Positions 16,413 through 41,665 of a DNA stretch of 41,778 bases are shown here, piece by piece (the first letter of the stretch is position 1; every line of letters begins with the position of its first letter). Under the pieces are notes generated by a model. That model was given only the letters and a program-made list of their open reading frames with translations. It was not told the DNA's origin and ran no database searches. Source of the stretch: a virus. The stretch lies in UHGV virus genome UHGV-0176688, one strand, 5' to 3'. A program made the translations under genes and the position numbers.

Positions 16413-16706
16413 TTATGGTTGAATCCAGTTATCTTCAATAGCAATGCTCAATCTTTGTAACCATTCTGCTAATTTCAGCATTGCTTCTCTTTCGCTTAAA
16501 CCACGAGGAAAATCATCAAGCGATATTGTTGGCTTGAAGTTTCCCAAATTATCCATTTCAACGGTCAGATTTTGCTCCAGCACGGTATTCCTTACGCGGC
16601 TATTGTGCCGAAGCAAATATACTGAACGTGATTTATTGGTTTTGTGGTCGAACGTATATTCGGTAAGTATCATCTGGCTTCCGCCATGATTATTACCGCG
16701 CCACAT
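16413..16706 (-). CDS. Hypothetical protein
   Basis: 97-aa ORF; alternative start at MILTEYTF (16673). Confidence 0.4.
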   Translation of the reverse strand: MWRGNNHGGSQMILTEYTFDHKTNKSRSVYLLRHNSRVRNTVLEQNLTVEMDNLGNFKPTISLDDFPRGLSEREAMLKLAEWLQRLSIAIEDNWIQP

Positions 16707-16992
16707 AATTACTCCGTGTTAATTTTACCTTTATCGCGAACACCTTTACCGGTTTATCGCCGAAGTGCGGGTGTGTGATTATCTTAATTTCATAGCCGTC
16801 ATACGGAACATCAATTCTGCGGCTGGAATCGTCGCGCTTCGGATATCCCTTTGTGATAATCAGGCGGTCATACTCGCGGAACATAATTCGCTTATTCCAG
16901 TAGTCATTACACAGGCGATACTCTTCTGTTTTCTCTCCGCGAATCATTGCATCGAAGTATTCACCTTTGACGGCAAGTTGCAGGTTAGCCAC
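16693..16992 (-). CDS. ASCH/PUA-like (DUF3850-type) small protein
   Basis: GTG start 6 nt after RBS AAGGAG; KGEYFDAMIRGEKTEEYR...RLIITKGYP pattern. Confidence 0.45.
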   Translation of the reverse strand: MANLQLAVKGEYFDAMIRGEKTEEYRLCNDYWNKRIMFREYDRLIITKGYPKRDDSSRRIDVPYDGYEIKIITHPHFGDKPVKVFAIKVKLTRSNYVAR

Positions 16993-17236
16993 GGTTAACT
17001 CCTTGCTGTGTAGCGTCGAGTAATAAATCCCACAACCGCTGAGAGCAATTTCCGCATGTACAGCGCTGACCCACAACGTTTATCGCGTTGCTGATTTCCG
17101 GCGTTACCTGTTTAGGAACCATAACCCAACCATCCGGAGTTACCGGAGAGTTGCCAGCCAGTCTACGCAAAACAGCCTTAACAGCCTCAATACGGTCATC
17201 ATCGCAACTTTCCAGCGTATCTATGCGGTCGAGCAT
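16985..17236 (-). CDS. Hypothetical protein
   Basis: 83-aa ORF whose stop overlaps the downstream GTG start by 8 nt. Confidence 0.4.
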   Translation of the reverse strand: MLDRIDTLESCDDDRIEAVKAVLRRLAGNSPVTPDGWVMVPKQVTPEISNAINVVGQRCTCGNCSQRLWDLLLDATQQGVNRG

Positions 17237-18139: not shown

Positions 18140-18328
18140 TCACTCTCCTTTAGTGCGCAAATGGTTTCTCCAGCGGTTTTGCGCCGCGCTGGGCTTTTTG
18201 CAAAAACCACAATCCATCATCCCGTAATATTTCATCAACCCCATCCGTCGGTTGCTGAGTCTCACCCACTGCCAGACGCCAGGAGCGTTTCTACGAACTA
18301 ACAGAATCTTTGCTTTACGGTTTTTCAT
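18140..18328 (-). CDS. Small basic protein, MKNRKAK family copy 1
   Basis: 62 aa; start overlaps stop of copy 2 (ATGA). Confidence 0.45.
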   Translation of the reverse strand: MKNRKAKILLVRRNAPGVWQWVRLSNRRMGLMKYYGMMDCGFCKKPSAAQNRWRNHLRTKGE

Positions 18329-18501
18329 CTTACTGCGTACCCTTTCTTCCGCCTGTTCTGTGACGCAGTAGGCTTACGCTTTGCGGCAAAAGCCACCTGA
18401 CCAAATGGATGGAGTACCGCTATCTTATGGTTGCTAATAACCAGCTCCACCACACGCACAGGTCGCTGTAAAAAAAGTCGTTTTGCCTTACGGTTTTTCA
18501 T
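18325..18501 (-). CDS. Small basic protein, MKNRKAK family copy 2
   Basis: 58 aa MKNRKAKRLFLQRPVRVVELVISNHKIAVLHPFGQVAFAAKRKPTASQNRRKKGYAVR; RBS GGAGAG; below track cutoff. Confidence 0.4.
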   Translation of the reverse strand: MKNRKAKRLFLQRPVRVVELVISNHKIAVLHPFGQVAFAAKRKPTASQNRRKKGYAVR

Positions 18502-18673: not shown

Positions 18674-19153
18674 TTACTCACCTTCTTTGATGCGAATGCC
18701 AGCGGCGCGTGGCACATTAACTTCCACGATGCGCACAGTTGGTTTGTACATCTCAATCGCTGTCAGCCAGTCAGCGCCGGTCATATGCTTTTCTGCATCG
18801 CCATTAGTCCATTGAACCGGCACGCCAATAGCTTTCATCGCAATTTCTATTTCCCCGGCAATGGCGCTTTTCCCGCAACCAGTAAAACCAGAGACAACGA
18901 CAAGAACTTCGCCTTTGGCTGGTTTTATTTCCCGCGCCTCCACCTCTGCAATTCGGCACATAGCATCGATATTTGTGTCTTCCAGGCGTTTAACTTCATC
19001 CAATAATGCCAACGCGATATCTGGCGAAAAGTGCTTCATAAAATCGTTAAGCGCATTAATTCGCTGATCGAAAGGCATTACAGGCGCTTCACCAGCAATT
19101 TTTGTTTTTTCAGCAATTTCACGAAGCTTTTGATAGTCAATTTTGTTTGTCAT
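18674..19153 (-). CDS. Hypothetical protein with Walker-A-like motif
   Basis: GFTGCGKS fits GxxxxGKS; 159 aa. Confidence 0.45.
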   Translation of the reverse strand: MTNKIDYQKLREIAEKTKIAGEAPVMPFDQRINALNDFMKHFSPDIALALLDEVKRLEDTNIDAMCRIAEVEAREIKPAKGEVLVVVSGFTGCGKSAIAGEIEIAMKAIGVPVQWTNGDAEKHMTGADWLTAIEMYKPTVRIVEVNVPRAAGIRIKEGE

Positions 19154-20028
19154 GCCACTACCTCTTCGAATTTCAACTCCAATTGGTCACCCCAGATTTC
19201 ACATGATTCGGAACACGAACCAGTATCAAACCGCTTGGCCTGCACCATCGCCTGATACAAATTTCTGTAGTCGCTGTCGGCATACATTCTGGCAATCCCG
19301 TCAAGCGTCAGGTGACCACGGTACATAACGTCTTTACCTGTTCTGCGATGACCATCCCTGACGTGTTTGCCTGTAACCAGCTCATTAAAAATTCGCATCA
19401 GACCAGGTTCGTCTTTACATGCAAGCCCCAGCTTTTGCGTTGACTTTTTGATGCAAAAAACACAGTTCCCGAGGTGCTCCGGGATTTGCAAATCAAAAGG
19501 TTGTTTTCGCCACCACCGGATAACATCCGACTTATCAAAATCTGACAGCTCGGCAAGATACCGGACGCCCGGTTTCGGTTTCAGCCTACGGGGTTCGTCC
19601 GCACGAATACCCAGCCATGTGATGTAATTCCCTCGCCCAAAATGGTCATCGCAATATTTCGTGAAAGGGGTGAGTTTTAGCCTGTCAGTACAGAACGCGC
19701 CGCCGATGTATGGCGTACCGTACTTTTTAACCATGTCCATAAACGGTTTAAGCACCGGCATTCGCGTCTGAATATCCTTTGGTTCCCATTCCGTATAACC
19801 ATTTGGCTGCCCAAGTTCTGGATTTATATCGACCTGCAACACCGTTAGCGGTACATTCCAGAACTTCACAACCTCACGAATAAAGCGATACGTCAGAGGA
19901 TGTTCACAGCCGGTATCCATAAAAATGAAATGGACGCTAGCGCCAGCTTTTCGCTGTGCTTCCATCAGATGAACGAGATAAGCCGATGTTCGTCCACCTG
20001 AAAAGCTGACGACTTGATGCATACTCAC
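19150..20028 (-). CDS. PAPS reductase-like PP-loop protein (CysH/DndC superfamily)
   Basis: PP-loop VVSFSGGRTS and FMDTGCEHPLTYRF motif. Confidence 0.75.
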   Translation of the reverse strand: MSMHQVVSFSGGRTSAYLVHLMEAQRKAGASVHFIFMDTGCEHPLTYRFIREVVKFWNVPLTVLQVDINPELGQPNGYTEWEPKDIQTRMPVLKPFMDMVKKYGTPYIGGAFCTDRLKLTPFTKYCDDHFGRGNYITWLGIRADEPRRLKPKPGVRYLAELSDFDKSDVIRWWRKQPFDLQIPEHLGNCVFCIKKSTQKLGLACKDEPGLMRIFNELVTGKHVRDGHRRTGKDVMYRGHLTLDGIARMYADSDYRNLYQAMVQAKRFDTGSCSESCEIWGDQLELKFEEVVA

Positions 20029-20031
20029 GGT

Positions 20032-20724
20032 TTATTCCTGAACGCGCTTAAACTCGATTACCCATACCCACGGGTTAGATAGCCAGTTCTCCTGCCCGTA
20101 AAGACTGCGCCAGATATCACCAAAACCAACGCGATAAACAGCTTCCGGCGGCGTAATTTTGTACATCGCCGGAGATGCGCCTTCTGCTTTAGCATCTGCC
20201 TCGCTCATATCACGCAGCCGTTCCACACGCACGTCGGTAATTTCCAGCAAAATGCGCGATGCCCAGCGCGGCATGTGAATTGATGGACGCCACCCGCCAT
20301 CAAATTTTTCATTCACAGTGTGAGGTTTCCAGTCGGCATCATCGGGTATCGACCACAAGCCGTAATCACCCGGCTTTTGCTCACAACTGGCCCGATAAAT
20401 CCTTGCTGCGTTCTTCTCATCGCCACGACAAAGGTTGTCGTTCCAGTCCACACTGCAACCATCCTCATTGCCTAATATCGCCCACGCCTCACGGACCCAT
20501 ATGCGATCACCAACGTTACCGAACGGGCATAAACCATGTTCAGGTGCATCCATAACGTGGGTATAGACACCATTGCGTTTCTTTGTCGGTTTACGGATAA
20601 CCAGGCAGTTATCGGCCCTGACATTTTTTACAGGTCGGCGAGTCTGCGTCTTCCTTCCTTCGAGGATGGCCCTGACCATCTCATCGTTAAAAATCATCCC
20701 GCGTTCTTTCATTTTTTGATCCAC
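20032..20724 (-). CDS. ASCH/PUA-like domain protein
   Basis: MIFNDEMVRAILEGRKTQTRRP...RILLEITDVRVERL; start may be the internal Met at 20697. Confidence 0.45.
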   Translation of the reverse strand: MDQKMKERGMIFNDEMVRAILEGRKTQTRRPVKNVRADNCLVIRKPTKKRNGVYTHVMDAPEHGLCPFGNVGDRIWVREAWAILGNEDGCSVDWNDNLCRGDEKNAARIYRASCEQKPGDYGLWSIPDDADWKPHTVNEKFDGGWRPSIHMPRWASRILLEITDVRVERLRDMSEADAKAEGASPAMYKITPPEAVYRVGFGDIWRSLYGQENWLSNPWVWVIEFKRVQE

Positions 20725-20728
20725 CTCA

Positions 20729-21724
20729 TCAGTTATTGAACGTGATCACTCCGCGCTCGATGGCGAAGTCGAAAAGCTGGTTAGCTGCTACGTAAAGGCG
20801 TATGCCATGTGCTTTTTCCCATGCCCGGACATCGTTTTCTGCGCTTCTGGCGCAGTCATCGCAAAGAGGAACAGCCCAGCGGTCGTGTTCGTTTAACGAG
20901 CGGGCGCGGTACATGAATGGGTGATTAACCTTGCCGCCGCAGCCTACACACGGGCGAGACACCACAAACCGGAGATAAGCCGGGCTTTTTCCGAGTAAGG
21001 TTTTTGGACGGCGCATATATAGGAGGCCAGAATCTTCATCGACGGACAGATTGACGATCTGCTCTGCGGAAATATCCACCAGCTCGCGGGTACTATGCTC
21101 CCAGGTAATATCCGACTCTTTCAGAGTGCCGGTAGGGATTTCAGTTTTTGGCTGACAAAATGCAATGCGACCAGCTTCATCAGGCAGTTCGTCTTTAAGA
21201 TTCCGGCGAATGGCCCAAAAGGTGAGTTCAACCATGCTCAGATCGCGATCTGGCGGAAGTTTTAACTCGCTGGCAGCCCAGTTCATAATCCAGTTGGCGC
21301 GATTCCGTGACAGTTGGTCTTCCAGCTTGCCGTATCCCTTCATCATGTATTCCGCATCATGCTTCCAGCACAGGCGAACGGCAGAACCGTTATAGAAATG
21401 GGTGGTTAGCTGGTGGCTGCAATCGCGCTTATCATGCGCCTGGCAATCGTGAATGTTGGTGCTAACCCAGTGAACGAGAGAATCCTCACCACCTAACGCG
21501 TTAAATACACGCTCACTTTGAAAAAAGGGGGCCAGTGACTGGTTGGCAACCAGTGAATAATTCAGGTCAACGACACCATCAGGGGTGTTTTCAGCCTGTT
21601 CACGCGGCAATGGGGATATAAGAAAACGGCGTCCTGCGCCGATGTAATTGCTGGTGGGCTTATCTACAGGAAAGACAGCCACACCAGTTTCATTTACGAC
21701 ATATGGGGTGATTATTGCACTCAT
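20729..21724 (-). CDS. Hypothetical protein with C-terminal HNH-like zinc-ribbon motif
   Basis: CVGCGGKVNHPFMYRARSLNEHDRWAVPLCDDC (CxxC...H-N-H...CxxC). Confidence 0.45.
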   Translation of the reverse strand: MSAIITPYVVNETGVAVFPVDKPTSNYIGAGRRFLISPLPREQAENTPDGVVDLNYSLVANQSLAPFFQSERVFNALGGEDSLVHWVSTNIHDCQAHDKRDCSHQLTTHFYNGSAVRLCWKHDAEYMMKGYGKLEDQLSRNRANWIMNWAASELKLPPDRDLSMVELTFWAIRRNLKDELPDEAGRIAFCQPKTEIPTGTLKESDITWEHSTRELVDISAEQIVNLSVDEDSGLLYMRRPKTLLGKSPAYLRFVVSRPCVGCGGKVNHPFMYRARSLNEHDRWAVPLCDDCARSAENDVRAWEKAHGIRLYVAANQLFDFAIERGVITFNN

Positions 21725-21761
21725 AATGCATACCGACTCTGTTTTGTTCCGAGCGGTAAAA

Positions 21762-21799
21762 TAATATGTTAGAAAACTAAAATCAATGTTCTAACGTAA
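21762..21799. promoter_or_regulatory. Pair of operator-like motifs upstream of the leftward operon
   Basis: atATGTTAGAAAAc (21764-21777) and aaTGTTCTAACGtaa (21785-21799). Confidence 0.45.
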
Positions 21800-21822
21800 T
21801 TTTGAGTGCGTAAATGATTTGA

Positions 21823-22545
21823 TCAGACTTTAAGCTTCCCTCCCTTCACCTGCATTAGCGTCAGATTTCCGCAAAAAACCGCGCCCGTGTCTATGTAGTG
21901 CTGATTCCAGTATGCTTTTGGTCTTCGTACCGGTGTGTGCCCAAAGATAAAGCGATCTGCGCCTGTGATTTCTCCACCAATGCCATCTATCGAATCACCG
22001 ACGCGACTGCGCGACCAGACAACATCAAAAAGCGACACATCCTTACCGAACTGGTACTCTCCACCTGGATAGTCGGCATGGGCTATAACGATAGTTTCAT
22101 GCCCAGTGTTCAACTCAATGATATATGGCAGACGCTTTACCAGCTCCACCAGCGCCTTGGCTAATATTTCCTGATCAGTGCCCAGCATGAAGAACCATTG
22201 TCCGCCATTCATTAGCCAGTTATTCACGTTGCCATCAGGACTTAACGCATCAAGCATCAACCGCTCATGGTTCCCCATTACTGCCCTGAACCAGGGCATC
22301 TGCAATAGTTCCAGACATTCGACATTTTCAGTACCGCGATCGATAAGGTCGCCAACCGATATCAGTAAATCCTGCGCCGGGTCAAAATCCACACGATGGA
22401 GTTCGGACATCAGTCTGGTGTAGCAACCATGCAGATCACCAACAACCCATATGTTTCTGTAGCCAGAACCATCAATACGGCTATATAAATTCACTTCATG
22501 CATAGTCTGGATCATGCGGCAACCTTCTCCCGCAGCCAGATACAA
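21823..22545 (-). CDS. Ser/Thr protein phosphatase (lambda PPase / PP1-like metallophosphoesterase)
   Basis: GDLHG, GDLIDRG, GNHE motifs; likely start near MIQTMHEV. Confidence 0.85.
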
Positions 22546-25884: not shown

Positions 25885-26191
25885 ACACTCTCCTTTCGAA
25901 ATAAACGTACTGATTAATCATGCCCAGGGGCATTTCGAGTTTTTCCGCGATCTCACGGCGGGGAACACCACACTGATGAAGCTGCCGTGCCAGTTCTATA
26001 TCGCTCTGCCGGTATTTGGCTGACGGATGAAAGTCTCCTTTCAGAATCATGCTGATCCCCAACTCCCGCGCTTTAGTCCTGACGGCATCACCGGTACGAC
26101 CGATCAGCTTCCCAATACTCTCGACCGTCATAGTTCCGGCGCACTGGCGGAGTATCATGATTTCTGCCCTTCCCCATCCCCGCCAGCTCAC
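25874..26191 (-). CDS. Small HTH DNA-binding protein
   Basis: TVESIGKLIGRTGDAVRTKARELG helix-turn-helix-like segment. Confidence 0.45.
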   Translation of the reverse strand: MSWRGWGRAEIMILRQCAGTMTVESIGKLIGRTGDAVRTKARELGISMILKGDFHPSAKYRQSDIELARQLHQCGVPRREIAEKLEMPLGMINQYVYFERRVYEV

Positions 26192-26811
26192 GCCGACATC
26201 CTCTGAGACATAAACTCCACAAAACGAACTGCATCTTCAGAAACAACACCGCATGACTTCAGATAATTCATTGCGTCACCAGGTAGCGGATTGGTTGGTT
26301 CAGCATTTGCCAGGGATTGCGATAAAAGATTGATTAATTTGACCATTCTTCGCTGTCGGAGGTTGTATCCTTCAGCCAAAGACAGGTAACTGGAAAGGGT
26401 TTGGCTTAAGCGAGCGCGAAGCTGATCCGTGCCGTGACATTCAATAGCAACATCACGTAACGCATTGACCAGTTCCCGGTAAATATGCGTAGCAACCTGG
26501 CATTCAATGTTGGTTGGTGACTCATAAATTACAGTCAGCCCAAGCTTTTCAGCCAACGCGTGCTCTGCACGAGCACCAACCGATTCTTCCCATTGATTGA
26601 GCAAATAGATCGCATCAGCAGAACGCACCATTGCCAGGCAAATATCCATGTATTCACTCTGACAAAGGCCACCAGGTAACACAGCTGGATTCAGAACGAT
26701 ATGCCCTTCAGCCATCAACTCGCTCGCTTTCGCATTAAACGCCGCACGGTTGTAATCTGGATAACCAGTCATCGGCCCCGCGATGTAAATTTTCAAAACA
26801 CGTTTCACCAT
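26188..26811 (-). CDS. DUF4406-like (nucleoside 2-deoxyribosyltransferase-like fold) protein
   Basis: KIYIAGPMTGYPDYNRAAFNAKASELMAEGHIVLNP; ATG 26811 overlaps upstream stop (TGATG). Confidence 0.55.
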   Translation of the reverse strand: MVKRVLKIYIAGPMTGYPDYNRAAFNAKASELMAEGHIVLNPAVLPGGLCQSEYMDICLAMVRSADAIYLLNQWEESVGARAEHALAEKLGLTVIYESPTNIECQVATHIYRELVNALRDVAIECHGTDQLRARLSQTLSSYLSLAEGYNLRQRRMVKLINLLSQSLANAEPTNPLPGDAMNYLKSCGVVSEDAVRFVEFMSQRMSA

Positions 26812-26963
26812 CAAAATTTCCCCAAAATCGTGACGCAAAACATAAGCACTGCGAAAAGCTCAATACCAAGCTCAAGTAGCGCCAACGCCCCGAAAAACAA
26901 CACATAGAACAGGCCAATCTCATTCACAGATGGCTGGTGGATCGCACTTAAAGCTATAAGCAT
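26811..26963 (-). CDS. Small membrane peptide (about 50 aa)
   Basis: RBS GGAGGA; MLIALSAIHQPSVNEIGLFYVLFFGALALLELGIELFAVLMFCVTILGKF; coupled to DUF4406 gene. Confidence 0.45.
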   Translation of the reverse strand: MLIALSAIHQPSVNEIGLFYVLFFGALALLELGIELFAVLMFCVTILGKF

Positions 26964-27002: not shown

Positions 27003-27018
27003 TTATGTTAGAAAATCA
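27003..27018. promoter_or_regulatory. Operator-like motif in divergent promoter region (ref versus leftward operon)
   Basis: ttATGTTAGAAAAtca; exact 9-mer TGTTAGAAA at 27006-27014. Confidence 0.5.
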
Positions 27019-27083
27019 ATTTTGTATATCTAACTATTTTGATCAATCATAGAAAAATCGCTGAAAAGTAAGAGGCAGCCATC

Positions 27084-27662
27084 ATGCAGAAACAGAGCTA
27101 TTGGGAGAAACAGAGACAAAAAGCCATGCAAAAATTGGCTGACCCAGCCTGGCGAGAGGAACAAAGGGCAAAGCGCCTTCAACAAGCTCAACGCCAGCAG
27201 CAACGAGCGAGAGAAAAAGCCGCATCGCCTGAATATCGGCAAAAGAGAATTGAAAAAGCAAAGCAATATGACCAGCGGAGAAAAGAGAAAGCTGTATCCG
27301 CTCCGTCCAAAAAAACACGCACGTCACGCGGCCTGAAGGGCAGATCACTCACAGCCGATGAACGCCGGATACAGACCGCTATCGGTACTCTCCCCTGCAT
27401 TGCCTGCCATATTCACGGGCAACATAGCCCAGTGGTATCCCTGCACCATATCTTCGGGAGAACGGCAGAGAACGCGCATAAATATGTCCTCCCTTTGTGT
27501 AAATGGCACCACCAGTACGCAGCGCCAGCCGAGGTCCGAGAACAATATCCCTGGCTGGTCCCTGTTCATGCTGATGGAAAAATAGGCGGAAAAGCAGATT
27601 TCATGCGGCACAATGCCGATGAAATGATGTTGTATCAGATGGCGATTGAATTGATAAATTAG
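27084..27662 (+). CDS. ref: Ref-like HNH endonuclease (recombination enhancement function)
   Basis: LPCIACHIHG...SLHHIFGRT...LPLCKWHHQYAAPAEVREQYPWLVPVHADG matches P1 Ref as recalled. Confidence 0.8.
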   Translation: MQKQSYWEKQRQKAMQKLADPAWREEQRAKRLQQAQRQQQRAREKAASPEYRQKRIEKAKQYDQRRKEKAVSAPSKKTRTSRGLKGRSLTADERRIQTAIGTLPCIACHIHGQHSPVVSLHHIFGRTAENAHKYVLPLCKWHHQYAAPAEVREQYPWLVPVHADGKIGGKADFMRHNADEMMLYQMAIELIN

Positions 27663-27674
27663 TTTTCTAACACT
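27659..27674. promoter_or_regulatory. Operator-like motif heading the immI-like region
   Basis: ttagTTTTCTAACAct; exact 9-mer at 27664-27672. Confidence 0.5.
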
Positions 27675-39150: not shown

Positions 39151-39188
39151 TTTATGTTAGATAATTGAATATAATTTTCTAACATAAA
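39151..39188. promoter_or_regulatory. Inverted pair of operator-like motifs upstream of rdgC
   Basis: ttATGTTAGAtaattgaatataatTTTCTAACATaaa; 8-bp inverted arms. Confidence 0.5.
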
Positions 39189-39197
39189 TGGTGAAAC

Positions 39198-40103
39198 ATG
39201 AGATCAGTCGCTTTCAAAAACATCTTCATCTATCGTCTTTCACGTGAAGTTAACTGGAGTGCCGCAGAAGTATCCGATGCTCTTAGCAAATTCGTGTTTA
39301 CTCCTTGCGGTTCTCAGGACACAGCTAAAGTCGGTTGGACACCTGTTCTTGGTGACAACCTCACCCATGAATACCAGGGTTTTCTTCTGATACAGCATAA
39401 ACGAGAGGAAAAAATCCTACCCTCTCAAGTGCTCAAAGAAGAGTTACAGAAAAAAATCCTGACACTTGAAGAAGAGCAAGACAGAAAGCTGAAGAAGACT
39501 GAAAAAGATTCGCTGAAGGATGAAGTGCTTCACTCTCTTCTTCCTCGTGCTTTCACGAAAAAATCAGTCGCTAAAATCCTGATAGACCGAAGCAATCATC
39601 TGGTTTTTGTCGAGGCCAGCAGTGCTAAAAAAGCAGAGGATCAGCTGGCTTTGTTACGGAAATCGCTTGGCAGCTTGCCCGTTGTCCCCTTCTCTCCGAA
39701 AGCCCCATTAGAACTGACCATCACTGGCTGGATTAAAAATGGCTTCCCGAACGGTTTCCGTGCCGGTGAGGAAGCGACCTTAAAAGCATTGCTTGATGAT
39801 GGCGGCGCGGTCCGCTGCAAAAAAGTGGACCTGCTATCCGACGAAATCATGAGTCATATAGAAGCTGGTAAGGTTGCAACCACAGTTGCGGTTAACTGGC
39901 AAGACCGTGCATTTTTCAGACTGAATGACGATATGAGTATCAAGGCTTTGTCGTTCAGCGACGAATTGTACGACCAGAACGACGATATTGATCGAGAGGA
40001 TGTTGCGCAACGATTTGACGCTGACTTTATCCTGTTTACTGCTGAATTATCCGCGATGTTCACTTCGCTGGTGGAGGCCGTTGGTGGTGAAGCAGAACGT
40101 TAA
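39198..40103 (+). CDS. rdgC: Recombination-associated protein RdgC
   Basis: Extensive identity to E. coli RdgC as recalled ([12 protein letters not shown]..., [53 protein letters not shown]). Confidence 0.9.
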
Positions 40104-40116
40104 CAATAGACCTCTG

Positions 40117-40767
40117 ATGGTGAGTCTTTGTGATTTCACGGGGAAAATGGTCGCCCCCTGGCTGGAGCATGGTATAGATGCTGTTATCGTCGATCCACAA
40201 CACGCAGAGACCAGAGATGAGCTGATGCAATCAGGCGCAGTTCTGACACGTATCAGTGCGATTATCGATAGTGATGAAGTTTATGCTTTTCTCCGAAATA
40301 ATTTTCAACGTATTGTGTTTTTAGCTGGTTTTCCGCCGTGCACGGACCTTGCTGTTTCCGGTGCGCGCTGGTTTGCGCATAAGGCTGACAAAGATCCGTT
40401 TTTCCAGTTCAAAGCAATGCAGGTTGTCTGGCAGTGTTACGACATTGCAAAGATGATTGGTTGCCCGTACATGATTGAAAACCCGGTCAGCCAAATATCG
40501 ACATTCTGGCGTAAACCTGATCACATCTTCCATCCTTACCACTTCACTGCATATTGCAAGGAAGACAATTACACCAAAAAAACATGCCTCTGGAGCGGGC
40601 AGGGCTTTGTCATGCCTGATGCCCTAATGGACGAATCATTAGGCAAGCCAGATAACAGAATCCATACCGCGCCACCTGGACCTGAAAGGGCTAATTTCCG
40701 AAGTGCTACTCCGCATGGATTCGCAAAGGCAGTTTTCGAAGCGAATAAGGGGGTGCTCTATGAGTAA
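40117..40767 (+). CDS. Compact C5-cytosine DNA methyltransferase-like protein
   Basis: Motif IV AGFPPCTDLAVSG and motif VI MIENP, motif I-like LCDFTG; only about 216 aa so atypical; start uncertain (40117 or 40147). Confidence 0.45.
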   Translation: MVSLCDFTGKMVAPWLEHGIDAVIVDPQHAETRDELMQSGAVLTRISAIIDSDEVYAFLRNNFQRIVFLAGFPPCTDLAVSGARWFAHKADKDPFFQFKAMQVVWQCYDIAKMIGCPYMIENPVSQISTFWRKPDHIFHPYHFTAYCKEDNYTKKTCLWSGQGFVMPDALMDESLGKPDNRIHTAPPGPERANFRSATPHGFAKAVFEANKGVLYE

Positions 40768-41665
40768 ATCTATAGCAAGCATAGCCATAGAAAAACAGGA
40801 TACGATAGCTGAAATTAGCTATATGCGCACCATTCGGACTCAGGATGAATATGAGCGCCCGATCTTCAAATGGGTAGGCGGTAAATTCTCAGAGTTGCCT
40901 ACAGTGCTTGAGCATCTACCACACGGCAAGCGGTTAATAGAACCATTCGTTGGTGGCGGTTCCGTATTTACGAATGCAGGATTTCGCCACAACCTGCTTA
41001 ATGATATTAACGGTGACCTAATTAACTTCTATCAGACATTGCAGCGAGAAGGACATTCGCTCGTCACGCTGTCATATAGTTTTTTCCAAAATTACAACAA
41101 CGCTGACGCTTACCTCGAAGTGCGTGAGGCGTTTAACAGAGGAAAGTATGACCAGCTACATCATGCTGCCGCCTTTTTGTACCTTAATCGGCACTGTTTT
41201 AATGGCGTAACGCGGTACAACCAAAATGGCGAGTTCAACGTGGGGTATGGCAAATACAAAGCGCCCTACTTCCCACATGCAGAGATGGAGGCATTTTTGG
41301 CTGATGACGTACTCAAAAACACGTCCTTTGTATCAGGTGACTTTGCTGGCGTCATCGAGGCGGCTGGTGAAGGCGATGTGATTTTTTGCGATCCGCCGTA
41401 TGAACCGCTGCCGGATACAGAAGGGTTTACCAGTTATTCAGGAAATAGCTTCCGTTTCGACGAACAGAAACGGCTGGTATCTCTATTGGTGGAAGCCCAC
41501 CAGCGCGGCGCTAAGGTAGTGATTACAAATAGTGGTGCGCCAAACATCCGTGAACTATATGAAGGAAACGGGTTTAAAGTACATCATATGGCAGCCAGAC
41601 GGTCGGTTTCCTGCAAGGCGTCAACACGTGTAGTTGCTAACGATATAATTGCAATAATGAAGTAA
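40760..41665 (+). CDS. dam: N6-adenine DNA methyltransferase (Dam family)
   Basis: KWVGGK and DPPY motifs; RBS AAGGGGG; start overlaps upstream gene. Confidence 0.85.
   Translation: MSKSIASIAIEKQDTIAEISYMRTIRTQDEYERPIFKWVGGKFSELPTVLEHLPHGKRLIEPFVGGGSVFTNAGFRHNLLNDINGDLINFYQTLQREGHSLVTLSYSFFQNYNNADAYLEVREAFNRGKYDQLHHAAAFLYLNRHCFNGVTRYNQNGEFNVGYGKYKAPYFPHAEMEAFLADDVLKNTSFVSGDFAGVIEAAGEGDVIFCDPPYEPLPDTEGFTSYSGNSFRFDEQKRLVSLLVEAHQRGAKVVITNSGAPNIRELYEGNGFKVHHMAARRSVSCKASTRVVANDIIAIMK

Follow-up and report, generated by a model that had tools for sequence, protein, structure and literature searches.

A lambda NinC-family gene as an anti-restriction candidate in the accessory gene run of a P1/D6-like plasmid prophage

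Gene content and organization of the locus

The window analysed here is the whole 41,778-nucleotide stretch of the viral genome UHGV-0176688, and its source element is a P1/D6-like plasmid prophage (phage-plasmid) of E. coli of about 92 kb, to which pE2863-2 is 99.5% identical and phage D6 is related. On the minus strand of this window, four ORFs occupy exactly positions 18674-21724, as listed below with the evidence for each assignment in brackets.

18674..19153, minus strand: Ead/Ea22-like mosaic protein, 159 aa (PF13935, phrog_250)
19150..20022, minus strand: lambda NinC-family PP-loop protein, 290 aa (lambda Nin290 identity, phrog_424/33262, alignment, AF2)
20032..20712, minus strand: ASCH-fold protein, 226 aa (phrog_874, AF2 model, Foldseek, YqfB-type motif)
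20729..21724, minus strand: DUF968 protein, P1 PdcB-like, 331 aa (Pfam DUF968, phrog_96, alignment)

The intergenic distances in the block are 16 nt, 9 nt and -4 nt (an ATGA overlap), followed by -1 nt to the next ORF, and such tight gaps fit with co-translation and co-transcription of the block. An earlier note on this DNA had described it as a co-transcribed four-gene operon; the four minus-strand ORFs and their spacing agree with co-transcription, but the unit is longer than four genes, since the same-strand gene run extends unbroken past the block to about 13.7 kb, and the stretch between the upstream phosphatase gene and the block shows no terminator-like site. A second ASCH gene of the window, with the motif GEKTEEYR, lies in the same operon.

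A recurrent palindrome with promoter-like hexamers

The 98-bp gap upstream of the block contains a perfect palindrome, which recurs elsewhere in the window at the following positions.

21768..21795, no strand assigned: 28-bp perfect palindrome GTTAGAA-N14-TTCTAAC, putative repressor operator before the block (pattern scan)
21766..21794, minus strand: promoter-like hexamers within the palindrome, TTAGAA (21794-21789), a 17-nt spacer and TAACAT (21771-21766)
27007..27034, no strand assigned: second copy, one mismatch, in the divergent region between the DUF4406 gene and ref
39156..39183, no strand assigned: third copy, one mismatch, 15 nt upstream of rdgC
27644..27671, no strand assigned: fourth and weaker copy, two mismatches, at the end of ref

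With at most two mismatches allowed, the motif is found 4 times in the window where 0.14 occurrences would be expected, and 0 of 100 shuffles reached 4. The DUF4406 gene (26188-26838) is the first gene of a leftward operon and ref follows at 27084-27662, while rdgC (39198-40103) is succeeded by a D12 Dam methyltransferase gene (40703-41665); the putative operator is therefore common to ref, rdgC-dam and the four-gene block. The hexamers overlapping the palindrome are promoter-like and make up a predicted promoter with a weak consensus match (4/6 and 4/6), and the copies at 27007 and 39156 show the same layout, TTAGA(A/T)-17 nt-TAAC(A/T)(T/A). Of the operator-bearing promoter proposed in the earlier note, the recurrent palindrome and the overlapping hexamers are retained, but a stricter promoter consensus scan did not call the hexamers inside the palindrome. 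Moreover, the intergenic region with the palindrome differs from that of phage D6 by a single base outside the palindrome, and among the 17 fetched D6-lineage loci with a DUF968 gene, 14 have a copy upstream of that gene. By comparison of these loci, it is the DUF968 gene with which the predicted operator-promoter travels, rather than NinC or the ASCH-like gene.

In phage P1, dispersed C1 operators with the consensus ATTGCTCTAATAAATTT control early operons (ref, ban and others). The window motif is similar in being one short motif that precedes several operons of early or accessory genes, ref among them, and overlaps promoter hexamers. However, the C1 operator is an asymmetric 17-mer whereas the window motif is a 7+14+7 palindrome, and the C1 consensus is absent from the window with up to 3 mismatches allowed.

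The DUF968, Ea22-like and ASCH-like genes

The DUF968 protein matches its Pfam family (PF06147) over profile positions 1-171 of 171 with 153.5 bits against a cut-off of 27.8 (7e-45), and belongs to phrog_96, which is annotated 'HNH endonuclease'; in phage D6, a DUF968 gene in the same position is annotated 'similar to P1 gene pdcB'. The alignment reveals conserved residues C259xxC262...H280...C288xxC291 and C94/C119/H122/C190. The invariant CxxC...H280...CxxC is in keeping with the HNH-like zinc ribbon seen in the earlier note, and it resembles the core of Ref-type HNH proteins, but the candidate position of the catalytic His before P269 varies between H, R and T, and the hhalign alignment with the phage's own Ref HNH protein, though at the expected place, has a probability of only 10%. 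Neither Pfam HNH nor the PDB gave a match for this protein.

The Ea22-like protein is composed of an N-terminal Ea22 coiled-coil module (PF13935 on residues 4-72, 29.0 bits against a cut-off of 27) and a C-terminal module of about 80-85 aa, which in related loci is joined to other N-terminal modules. The C-terminal module carries GFTGCGKS, which fits the Walker-A pattern GxxxxGK[ST], so the motif behind the former designation as a small Walker-A protein is present. However, only about 75 residues come after it, no Walker B is assignable in the module, and the kinase and ATPase matches are all sub-threshold (APS_kinase 15.5 against 21.1, NF003013 18.8 against 163, AAA far below its cut-off).

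The ASCH-like gene, whose ATG start agrees with its homologues, encodes a member of the very large phage family phrog_874 (1e-89), and 43,451 representative clusters match at E<=1e-3. The Pfam ASCH score (PF04266) is 18.3 bits, under the cut-off of 21.2, with residues 160-186 alone aligned. In a structure search with the AF2 model (pLDDT 84.2), ASCH proteins occupy all of Foldseek ranks 1-8 and 10-16 at a target-length-normalised TM-score (TMt) of 0.46-0.71, the top matches being 3s9x, YqfB 9kyf (TMt 0.71), PH0355 and ZmASCH. As modelled, the 226-aa protein has an ASCH/PUA-like beta-barrel fold.

In YqfB-type proteins, the octapeptide G-x-K-x-x-T-x-R supplies the catalytic Lys, Thr and Arg and acts with a catalytic Glu, as backed by mutagenesis. 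The window protein carries this octapeptide as G19-R-K21-T-Q-T24-R-R26, and across 49 homologues K21 and E75 are invariant while G19, T24 and R26 reach a conservation of at least 90%. It therefore shares with E. coli YqfB the ASCH beta-barrel, the octapeptide and an invariant Glu, but is twice the size, with a variable, poorly conserved and lower-confidence central insertion of about 60-70 residues. By sequence alone, E75 is a candidate counterpart of YqfB E74. We regard the protein as a candidate for a separate YqfB-type hydrolase, which may act on N4-acyl-cytosine in nucleosides or tRNA.

The PP-loop gene belongs to the lambda NinC family

The 290-aa PP-loop protein is 80% identical to lambda NinC (Nin290) over residues 3-287, as compared on contigs 100% identical to lambda J02459 40980-41980, and matches phrog_424/33262 at about 1e-92. 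By this homology it belongs to the lambda NinC family, a known family. Its motifs are S8-F-S-G-G-R-T-S15, D38-T-G, C113, C126, C189xxC192, C272 and C276 (GSCSESCE tail), and in 24 homologues with 51-80% identity, SxSGGRTS, DTG, C113, C126, NCxFC and GSCSESC are invariant or near-invariant, all of them being kept in the window protein. The earlier assignment to the PP-loop ATP-pyrophosphatase superfamily is borne out by the canonical SGGxxS motif, by PF01507 on the N-terminal part (residues 6-72 only, 2.8e-9) and by the AF2 model (pLDDT 85.8), whose best PDB matches are CysH/APS reductase at about 1e-5.

Lambda NinC has the same size, the same PP-loop and cysteine pattern and the same standing as an accessory gene of temperate enterobacterial phages; it differs in lying between ninB and ninD in the nin region, while the window gene stands behind the DUF968 and ASCH-like genes in a P1/D6-type plasmid prophage. 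Lambda NinC is dispensable on laboratory E. coli, which suits a gene with an accessory or anti-defence role. In Stx-type phages, NinC is located in the early-left operon.

NinC, DNA methyltransferases and Dnd/Ssp-type restriction

Among the 42 species-level NinC loci with adequate flanks, a DNA methyltransferase is a recurrent partner, being fused or adjacent to NinC in 10; the fusions include Dcm-NinC-Dam and NinC-Dam, and in Salmonella phage Oslo the dam and ninC genes overlap. The window gene itself has its closest Dam gene about 20 kb away.

The best PADLOC match of the NinC-like protein is SspD (1.8e-13, 48.9 bits), followed by BrxP and DndC. The SspD match is limited to query residues 3-146 on profile positions 2-121 of 277, in a library without curated cut-off, and the DndC match (5e-4) covers the N-terminal half only. 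What is shared with DndC, SspD and BrxP is the nucleotide-binding half of the PAPS-reductase superfamily with its SGGxxS PP-loop (SGGKDS in DndC) and conserved cysteines; the SspD profile length of 277 indicates a size similar to that of the NinC-like protein, but the similarity to SspD and DndC is confined to the N-terminal nucleotide-binding half. The ATP pyrophosphatase activity of DndC requires a [4Fe-4S] cluster, and both DndC and SspD depend on partner proteins (D/E or B/C). The 43 annotated features around the homologous region of pE2863-2 include no cysteine desulfurase, no DndD/SspC ATPase and no DndE/SspB, and the genes flanking the NinC-like gene have no PADLOC match. Moreover, DndC and SspD are encoded by host defence island genes, while the window gene is phage-borne. 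The NinC-like protein was also considered as DndC proper and rejected, as it scores 17.5 bits in the DndC equivalog TIGR03183 against a cut-off of 290.4 and no partner genes are nearby.

The sole homologue with a phenotype is p0018 of Vibrio phage 44E38.1, an early accessory gene product with a NinC domain, to which the NinC-like protein is 55% identical over 283 aa (E = 1e-98). A cassette of p0018, a PAPS-reductase-domain-Dam fusion, and p0019 confers escape from host DndFGH restriction (Piel et al., bioRxiv 10.1101/2021.05.05.442762); the transferred cassette consists of these two genes and includes the Dam domain, and sufficiency of the PAPS domain alone was not demonstrated there (bioRxiv 10.1101/2021.05.05.442762). 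Reviewers of anti-defence loci read such genes likewise. Whereas p0018 has a C-terminal Dam domain and was transferred along with p0019 (DUF6475), the window protein stands alone, and no p0019 homologue was found in the window.

Because of the homology to p0018, an anti-restriction role of the NinC-like gene is supported, and it is reasonable to regard this gene as an anti-restriction or DNA-modification candidate, leaving the chemistry aside. The candidate DNA/RNA-modification or anti-restriction module of the earlier note is thereby narrowed to NinC alone, for which the Nin290 family, the methyltransferase links, SspD and 44E38.1 all speak; the other three genes drop out of it.

Proposed mechanism and alternatives

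To our judgement, with a probability somewhat better than even, the block is a slice of a long early accessory operon, probably repressor-controlled, consisting of four independently assorting mosaic genes of which NinC blunts phosphorothioate (PT)-linked restriction. Early expression is read from the operator common to ref and rdgC-dam and from the position of NinC in Stx-type phages. On infection or induction, a repressor would leave the palindromic operator, whose half-sites coincide with the -35-like and -10-like hexamers, and leftward transcription would then cover the pdcB-like, ASCH-like, ninC-like and ea22-like genes and more small genes. The NinC-like protein, by its motifs an ATP-using PP-loop enzyme, probably holds an Fe-S centre or persulfide at its conserved cysteine cluster, by analogy with DndC. 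It would act on or at phage DNA and so blunt the Dnd/Ssp-type restriction, most likely through adenylation, after which NinC would install a sulfur-containing mark via a host cysteine desulfurase. We infer this step from the phenotype of the homologue, the DNA-methyltransferase fusions, and SspD and DndC as the nearest defence relatives. The DUF968 and Ea22-like proteins are given no activity in this scheme. Several points speak against the proposal: most E. coli are without Dnd/Ssp whereas NinC is widespread, part of the 3.6-kb query being matched in 1409 of 5426 complete genomes, which suggests a broader or different target; the likeness to SspD and DndC is confined to the N-terminal half and their partner genes are missing; the Vibrio cassette comprised two genes and a Dam domain; and the predicted promoter is a weak consensus match.

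It is unlikely, though worth weighing, that NinC instead disarms PT-based defence without modifying phage DNA, for example by titrating or hijacking DndD/E, SspB/C or IscS, by offering DndFGH/SspE a decoy, or by using up a required sulfur or adenylate intermediate. The anti-Dnd phenotype of the homologous cassette is silent on mechanism, the partners that DndC and SspD require are missing, and other known anti-Dnd proteins target DndFGH rather than DNA. However, the PP-loop and six cysteines are strictly conserved in the 24 diverse homologues, which argues for catalysis, repeated fusion and adjacency to DNA methyltransferases suit a DNA-directed enzyme better, and the gene is common in hosts without Dnd/Ssp.

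The earlier note had joined the four products into one nucleic-acid modification pathway. Spelled out, the PP-loop protein would adenylate, the ASCH protein recognize or edit, the HNH protein nick, and the P-loop protein supply energy. In its favour, the genes are tightly spaced behind a shared predicted operator-promoter, the ASCH-like gene is directly upstream of NinC in 12 of 80 viral (IMG/VR) loci, in four loci (L114, L116, L123 and L124) NinC-methyltransferase fusions are followed downstream by DUF968-like genes, and Dnd/Ssp systems offer a loose analogy in combining a PP-loop enzyme, an ATPase and a nicking protein. But NinC occurs without the other three genes in 67 of the 80 viral loci, just 8 of 79 ASCH-like loci have NinC, and of the species-level loci, no more than 2 have an ASCH-like gene and no more than 4 a DUF968-like gene within 6 kb of NinC. 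In fact every pairwise combination occurs: DUF968-NinC without the ASCH-like gene (L013), DUF968-ASCH without NinC (L167, L168, L214-216), and DUF968 and Ea22-like genes with neither ASCH-like gene nor NinC (phage D6). Across loci, an ASCH gene of 56 to 98% identity stands beside a NinC of 97-99% identity, which points to recombination between the two genes. Furthermore, the complete arrangement is present in only 12 of 5426 E. coli genomes, and it is doubtful that the DUF968 and Ea22-like proteins have HNH and P-loop activities at all. As the genes assort independently in related elements, there is no conserved four-gene pathway; judged from gene neighbourhoods, the DUF968, ASCH-like and Ea22-like genes are independent accessory genes, and we consider a single pathway quite improbable.

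A slim chance is left to the reading that tRNA of host or phage is the substrate of both proteins, NinC through PP-loop thiolation or lysidine-type chemistry and the ASCH-like protein through ac4C removal, with a reprogrammed translation or escape from anticodon nucleases as the benefit. TilS, TtuA and LarE are among the PP-loop relatives, all 19 tested ASCH-domain proteins removed ac4C from tRNA, the window protein has the YqfB-type motif, and the second ASCH gene is in the same operon; against this, NinC is fused to DNA methyltransferases and not to RNA enzymes, its nearest defence relatives are DNA-PT enzymes, the sole known homologue phenotype is directed against a DNA restriction system, and the linkage of NinC with the ASCH-like gene is confined to one lineage.

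The catalytic C-terminal Cys of CysH lies in an ECGLH-type motif. It is very improbable that NinC simply serves as an auxiliary metabolic PAPS/APS reductase to raise host sulfate assimilation, in spite of its database name ('phosphoadenosine phosphosulfate reductase family protein') and its best PDB fold matches, since PF01507 covers so short a part, the score for the CysH equivalog NF002537 is 21.5 bits where the cut-off is 154, the query-length-normalised TM-score (TMq) with CysH/APS reductase is only about 0.39, an ATP-type PP-loop is retained, ECG[LI]H is absent from the whole sequence, whose C-terminus reads ...DTGSCSESCEIWGDQ... with GSCSESCE, and the context is early and anti-restriction-like with fusion to DNA methyltransferases. 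Assimilatory CysH was accordingly rejected as an identity, and a role in sulfur assimilation only, the outcome which by the earlier note would count against modification, is unlikely given the Nin290 family, the methyltransferase links, the closeness to SspD and the anti-Dnd homologue.

The block and the element that carries it

Four minus-strand ORFs, with spacings of 16, 9, -4 and -1 nt (the last to the next ORF), fill the block at 18674-21724 exactly, as the earlier note had read it.

Genes of the block
20729-21724, minus strand: DUF968 protein, 331 aa; full-length DUF968 match of 153.5 bits (cut-off 27.8); PHROGs family phrog_96, "HNH endonuclease"
20032-20712, minus strand: ASCH-like protein, 226 aa; strong match to phrog_874; Pfam ASCH score 18.3, below the cut-off of 21.2
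19150-20022, minus strand: NinC-like PP-loop protein, 290 aa; 80% identity to lambda "Nin 290" (NinC)
18674-19153, minus strand: Ea22-like protein, 159 aa; Ead/Ea22 N-terminal module barely above the Pfam cut-off, C-terminal module of about 85 aa with GFTGCGKS

The 3.6 kb around the block are 99.5% identical to the E. coli plasmid pE2863-2 (92.9 kb), and also match hundreds of non-mobilizable E. coli and Salmonella plasmids of about 90-95 kb and, in part, phage D6. Since the annotated relative moreover carries P1-type genes (tyrosine recombinase, phd/doc, HumD-like S24 peptidase, ref, icd, antirepressor), the window is, as judged by homology and gene content, a P1/D6-like phage-plasmid. Many public plasmids, in fact, already have the genes of the block, with annotation. 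The block sits inside a long minus-strand run of accessory genes, which extends from a DUF4406 gene (26188-26838, divergent from ref) to about 13.7 kb. Directly upstream lies a gene for a Ser/Thr metallophosphatase like lambda NinI and P1 Ppp (21823-22515, minus strand), and with its NinC, Ea22-like, DUF551 and phosphatase genes the leftward operon resembles a transplanted lambdoid nin/ea accessory region. Directly downstream, two overlapping tandem ORFs on the minus strand (18140-18328 and 18325-18501) encode basic, paralogue-like proteins of 62 and 58 aa that both begin MKNRKAK(I/R)L, one of them without annotation in pE2863-2.

A repeated putative operator

A perfect palindrome, GTTAGAA-N14-TTCTAAC, lies in the 98-bp gap in front of the DUF968 gene and occurs four times in the window when up to two mismatches are allowed.

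Copies of the palindrome
21768-21795: perfect copy, putative operator, in the gap upstream of the DUF968 gene
27007-27034: in the divergent region between ref and the left operon
27644-27671: at the end of ref
39156-39183: 15 nt upstream of rdgC, which is followed by a D12 Dam methyltransferase gene

As only 0.14 copies would be expected and four were never reached in 100 shuffles, the operator proposed in the earlier note is upheld, and the copies look like a dispersed operator set of the phage-plasmid's repressor. In the strong copies the half-sites coincide with a -35-like TTAGA(A/T) and, 17 nt on, a -10-like TAAC(A/T)(T/A), therefore a bound dimer would occlude the promoter. A consensus promoter scan of the gap (21725-21822) called no promoter, and the candidate promoter upstream of DUF968 is proposed from the repeated TTAGAA-17-TAACAT layout alone. 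The P1 C1 operator consensus gave no match in the window with up to three mismatches; a P1-type C1 site was thus rejected, and the palindrome is probably a different operator, which resembles the P1 C1 regulon in its dispersed layout but not in its consensus. The intergenic region is nearly identical in D6, and of the 17 loci fetched from this lineage that bear DUF968, 14 have the perfect palindrome ahead of the gene, so that the palindrome belongs with DUF968 rather than with NinC or the ASCH-like gene.

NinC and its DNA methyltransferase partners

NinC is an old, known family, whose homologues form 5062 clusters. Contigs of 48.4 kb, 100% phage lambda, encode the protein 80% identical to the one in the window; in lambda its gene is "Nin 290", that is NinC. 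Across 24 homologues (51-80% identity) the PP-loop S8-x-S-G-G-R-x-S15, D38-T-G, C113, C126, C189xxC192, C272 and C276 are invariant; C272 and C276 belong to a GSCSESCE tail, where the model has low confidence. The structural model (pLDDT 85.8) comes closest to CysH/APS reductase, in the nucleotide-binding core only (TMq about 0.39; TMq and TMt denote TM-scores normalised to query and target length).

Of 42 species-dereplicated loci whose flanks reach 1.5 kb or more on both sides, four have NinC fused to a DNA methyltransferase, and six have such an enzyme encoded on the same strand within 1.5 kb. NinC-Dam fusions are found in Erwiniaceae, Providencia and Vibrio phages. In Mixta tenebrionis (L114:4402-7701) a single ORF of 1099 aa reads Dcm(C5)-NinC-Dam(D12), in Sodalis sp. 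(L116:4438-7533) another of 1031 aa reads Dcm-NinC-Dam(PF05869), each followed by a DUF968-like gene, while Salmonella phage Oslo has the order ninB-dam-ninC with dam and ninC overlapping by 4 nt. Being repeatedly built into DNA methyltransferases of multiple specificity, NinC is most simply understood as another DNA-protecting activity.

On the plus strand of the window, 39198-41665 holds rdgC (PF04381, 9e-102), an ORF (39988-40767) with a C5-methyltransferase-like "GFPPC" motif and no Pfam match, and the D12 Dam methyltransferase gene (40703-41665); the phage-plasmid therefore keeps about 20 kb from NinC the methyltransferase(s) that other genomes fuse to it.

Among the homologues found were also contigs with low coverage and lengths of up to about 48.4 kb (L082-L092 plus some ten short loci, e.g. 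L095, L107, L108 and L128), from assemblies of unrelated organisms: Pseudomonas, Oceanobacillus, Neobacillus, Shewanella, Bradyrhizobium, Kitasatospora, a Segatella MAG and others. Their ninC matches the protein of the window exactly as that of lambda does, and L082, which was checked, is 100% lambda over 1 kb; most likely these are lambda DNA contamination or spike-in and not real prophages.

NinC and phosphorothioate-based immunity

Among the PADLOC defence profiles the NinC-like protein matches SspD best (1.8e-13, N-terminal half), then BrxP and DndC, while the DUF968, ASCH-like and Ea22-like proteins have no matches there. Each of SspD, BrxP and DndC is the PP-loop enzyme in one of the three DNA phosphorothioation systems known. 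The SGGRTS of NinC corresponds to the SGGKDS loop of DndC, an Fe-S protein that acts as an ATP pyrophosphatase; NinC has six conserved cysteines. However, the protein falls short of the curated DndC and CysH equivalog scores by a wide margin, and the annotated features of the homologous pE2863-2 region include no Dnd or Ssp partner genes, thus NinC is a distinct family, neither DndC nor CysH. A prophage-borne defence system (Dnd, Ssp or BREX-4) was rejected for the missing partners and for scores that stay at the sub-family level.

A phenotype comes from a relative. In Vibrio crassostreae, phages that can infect a host with Dnd have two genes that set them apart from their relatives, p0018 (PAPS domain plus Dam) and p0019. 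Once these were transferred to the sensitive phage, it plated fully on the Dnd+ host with the retron deleted (Piel et al., bioRxiv 10.1101/2021.05.05.442762). The p0018 protein, P0095 in our homologue search, is 55% identical to the NinC-like protein of the window over 283 aa; for p0019 (DUF6475) no homologue was found among the genes of the window, and it was dismissed as the equal of any of them. Moreover, a 2026 survey of anti-CRISPR-associated operons lists phage PAPS reductases as candidate anti-RM/anti-PT genes (PT, phosphorothioate), and lambda does without ninC on laboratory E. coli, as expected for a gene of anti-restriction type.

Fusion and adjacency to methyltransferases, SspD and DndC as the nearest defence relatives, and the anti-Dnd phenotype in Vibrio together lead to a concrete hypothesis, namely a phage counter-measure to PT-based immunity. 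We consider it somewhat better than an even chance that NinC is an anti-restriction, DNA-directed enzyme among unrelated neighbours; the anti-restriction idea of the earlier note thus survives for this one gene, by its homology to p0018 and its methyltransferase fusions, and fails as a pathway of four. From motifs and genomic associations, which are observed, we infer all biochemical steps of the following scheme. Release of the repressor would start early leftward transcription from the palindromic promoter-operator; NinC would bind ATP at its PP-loop and act on phage DNA through its cysteine cluster with sulfur derived from the host; most probably a backbone phosphate, or else a base carbonyl, would be adenylated and sulfur substituted; and the marked DNA would no longer be treated as foreign by PT-sensing restriction (DndFGH, SspE and relatives). 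To this specific chemistry of adenylation and sulfur substitution we give well under half the confidence placed in the general role.

The strongest competing explanation has NinC disarm the defence and leave the DNA unmarked; the Vibrio phenotype does not discriminate against it, the methyltransferase fusions fit a DNA-directed enzyme better, and we rate it as unlikely. Slightly less likely still is the far-reaching version of the marking hypothesis, by which the NinC family, that of lambda included, would be self-sufficient DNA sulfur-modifying enzymes that adenylate DNA and leave a phosphorothioate or thio-base mark by means of host IscS only, without DndA/D/E or SspA/B/C. If it is true, a third kind of protective DNA mark, unseen until now, would be found in many temperate phages of enterobacteria as well as with the Dcm-NinC-Dam "triple modifiers". 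The counter-measure hypothesis can be tested in the most tractable of phage-host systems, where the function of lambda NinC now looks directly testable; if it holds, it adds a widespread anti-defence family and bears on phage-plasmids spreading in E. coli and Salmonella and on host range in phage therapy.

Neighbours that shuffle freely

The earlier note had taken the four genes as one nucleic-acid modification pathway. Tight packing would favour this, yet the distribution of the genes does not support it. In 80 IMG/VR loci with NinC at least 93% identical and neighbours scored within 6 kb, NinC stands without any of the other three genes in 67; most of these are Stx-type lambdoid prophages, in which NinC follows recT, exo and ssb in the early-left operon. 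The ASCH-like gene is directly upstream of NinC in 12 of the 80, where its identity ranges over 56-98% against 97-99% for NinC, which argues that recombination separates the two; DUF968 is found in five and all four genes in three. Because closely related prophages dominate these lists, what is counted is loci rather than independent events, and the genome set is the fairer sample; when the viral contigs were scanned again, this time with a profile, the 80 near-identical loci came up once more, and the diversity of NinC came from genome contigs. In the species-dereplicated genome set, an ASCH-like gene occurs within 6 kb of NinC in two loci and a DUF968-like gene in four. Conversely, only 8 of 79 ASCH-like loci carry NinC. 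Every combination occurs: DUF968 and NinC are combined in L013, DUF968 and the ASCH-like gene go together without NinC in L167, L168 and L214-216, and phage D6 has the order DUF968, small ORF, Ea22-like gene, with neither the ASCH-like gene nor NinC. At least 80% of the 3.6-kb arrangement is present in only 12 of 5426 complete E. coli genomes, and some part of it in 1409. The four genes are not a module, and the pathway is quite improbable; tightly packed phage accessory genes should not be read as pathways.

The DUF968 and ASCH-like proteins

The orthologue of the DUF968 protein in D6 was labelled P1 pdcB-like by its annotators. We favour the long start over the shorter PGAP (NCBI) start in pE2863-2, because the N-terminus MSAIITP... 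is kept in homologues down to 48% identity. The invariant residues in the alignment comprise C259xxC262, H280 and C288xxC291 together with C94, C119, H122 and C190, so "zinc-ribbon-like" was a fair description. As for the HNH nuclease proposed with it, the residue before P269, where the catalytic His is expected, varies (H/R/T), hhalign aligns this segment with the HNH core of the phage's own Ref at a probability of only 10%, and sequence and profile searches of the PDB gave no meaningful match; the label "HNH endonuclease" is not endorsed and the nuclease is unproven. NCBIfam searches with the DUF968 and ASCH-like proteins returned no matches.

The ASCH-like protein belongs to a family of 43,451 representative clusters at E<=1e-3, and its ATG start agrees with the homologue consensus MKERPILF. 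Because a sequence search of the PDB gave at best E = 0.62, the fold was assigned from an AlphaFold model (AF2; 49 diverse homologues, pLDDT 84.2), whose best PDB matches are the ASCH proteins 3s9x, E. coli YqfB, EF3133, PH0355 and ZmASCH, with TMt up to 0.71. About 60-70 residues, weakly conserved and modelled at lower confidence, are inserted into the barrel and split it. In the octapeptide G19-R-K21-T-Q-T24-R-R26, K21 is invariant and G19, T24 and R26 are at least 90% conserved; E75 is invariant as well. By these residues it is the YqfB-type "GKTR" version, and the ASCH-like reading is confirmed in both fold and motif. YqfB cannot do without Lys21, Thr24 and Arg26, and its Glu74 adds a factor of about 100 to 1000. 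Removal of ac4C from tRNA was seen with every one of the 19 bacterial, archaeal and human ASCH-domain proteins that were assayed; set beside the DNA methyltransferases fused to NinC, a tRNA-directed role of NinC and the ASCH-like protein together is nevertheless very unlikely. As a weaker corollary of a self-sufficient NinC, the YqfB-type hydrolase candidate may in this lineage edit an N4-acyl or related cytosine mark on nucleic acid.

The leftward operon contains another ASCH-type gene, a small one (16693-17076, minus strand). Its pE2863-2 orthologue is annotated as "ASCH domain-containing protein", a Pfam search with the protein found no match at E<=1e-3, and its GEKTEEYR is a Glu-type "GKER" octapeptide in contrast to the Thr-type of the 226-aa protein.

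The Ea22-like protein and sulfate assimilation

In lambda, NinC has for decades been listed as "Nin 290, function unknown", and its label in databases is that of a sulfate-assimilation enzyme; given the missed CysH scores, plain sulfate assimilation is hardly credible. Pairing this "PAPS reductase" with an APS-kinase-like P-loop for sulfur activation was likewise rejected. The GFTGCGKS motif of the small Walker-A protein is indeed present, but the NTPase assignment is unproven, since matches of the Ea22-like protein to APS kinase and AAA families are far under the cut-off (Pfam, NCBIfam), those to P-loop families in NCBIfam are sub-threshold only, and the C-terminal module is, by its length, too short for a canonical NTPase and recurs as a mosaic piece on various N-termini. 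The gene is a clear case of the typical Ea22 type with domain-level mosaicism. In fact, the near-invariant C-terminal module of about 85 aa (REIKPAKGEVLVVVSGFTGCGKS...VRIVEVNVPR) sits on at least four different N-terminal modules (18674-19153 in the window, L003, L013, L014, L170, L172 and L216).
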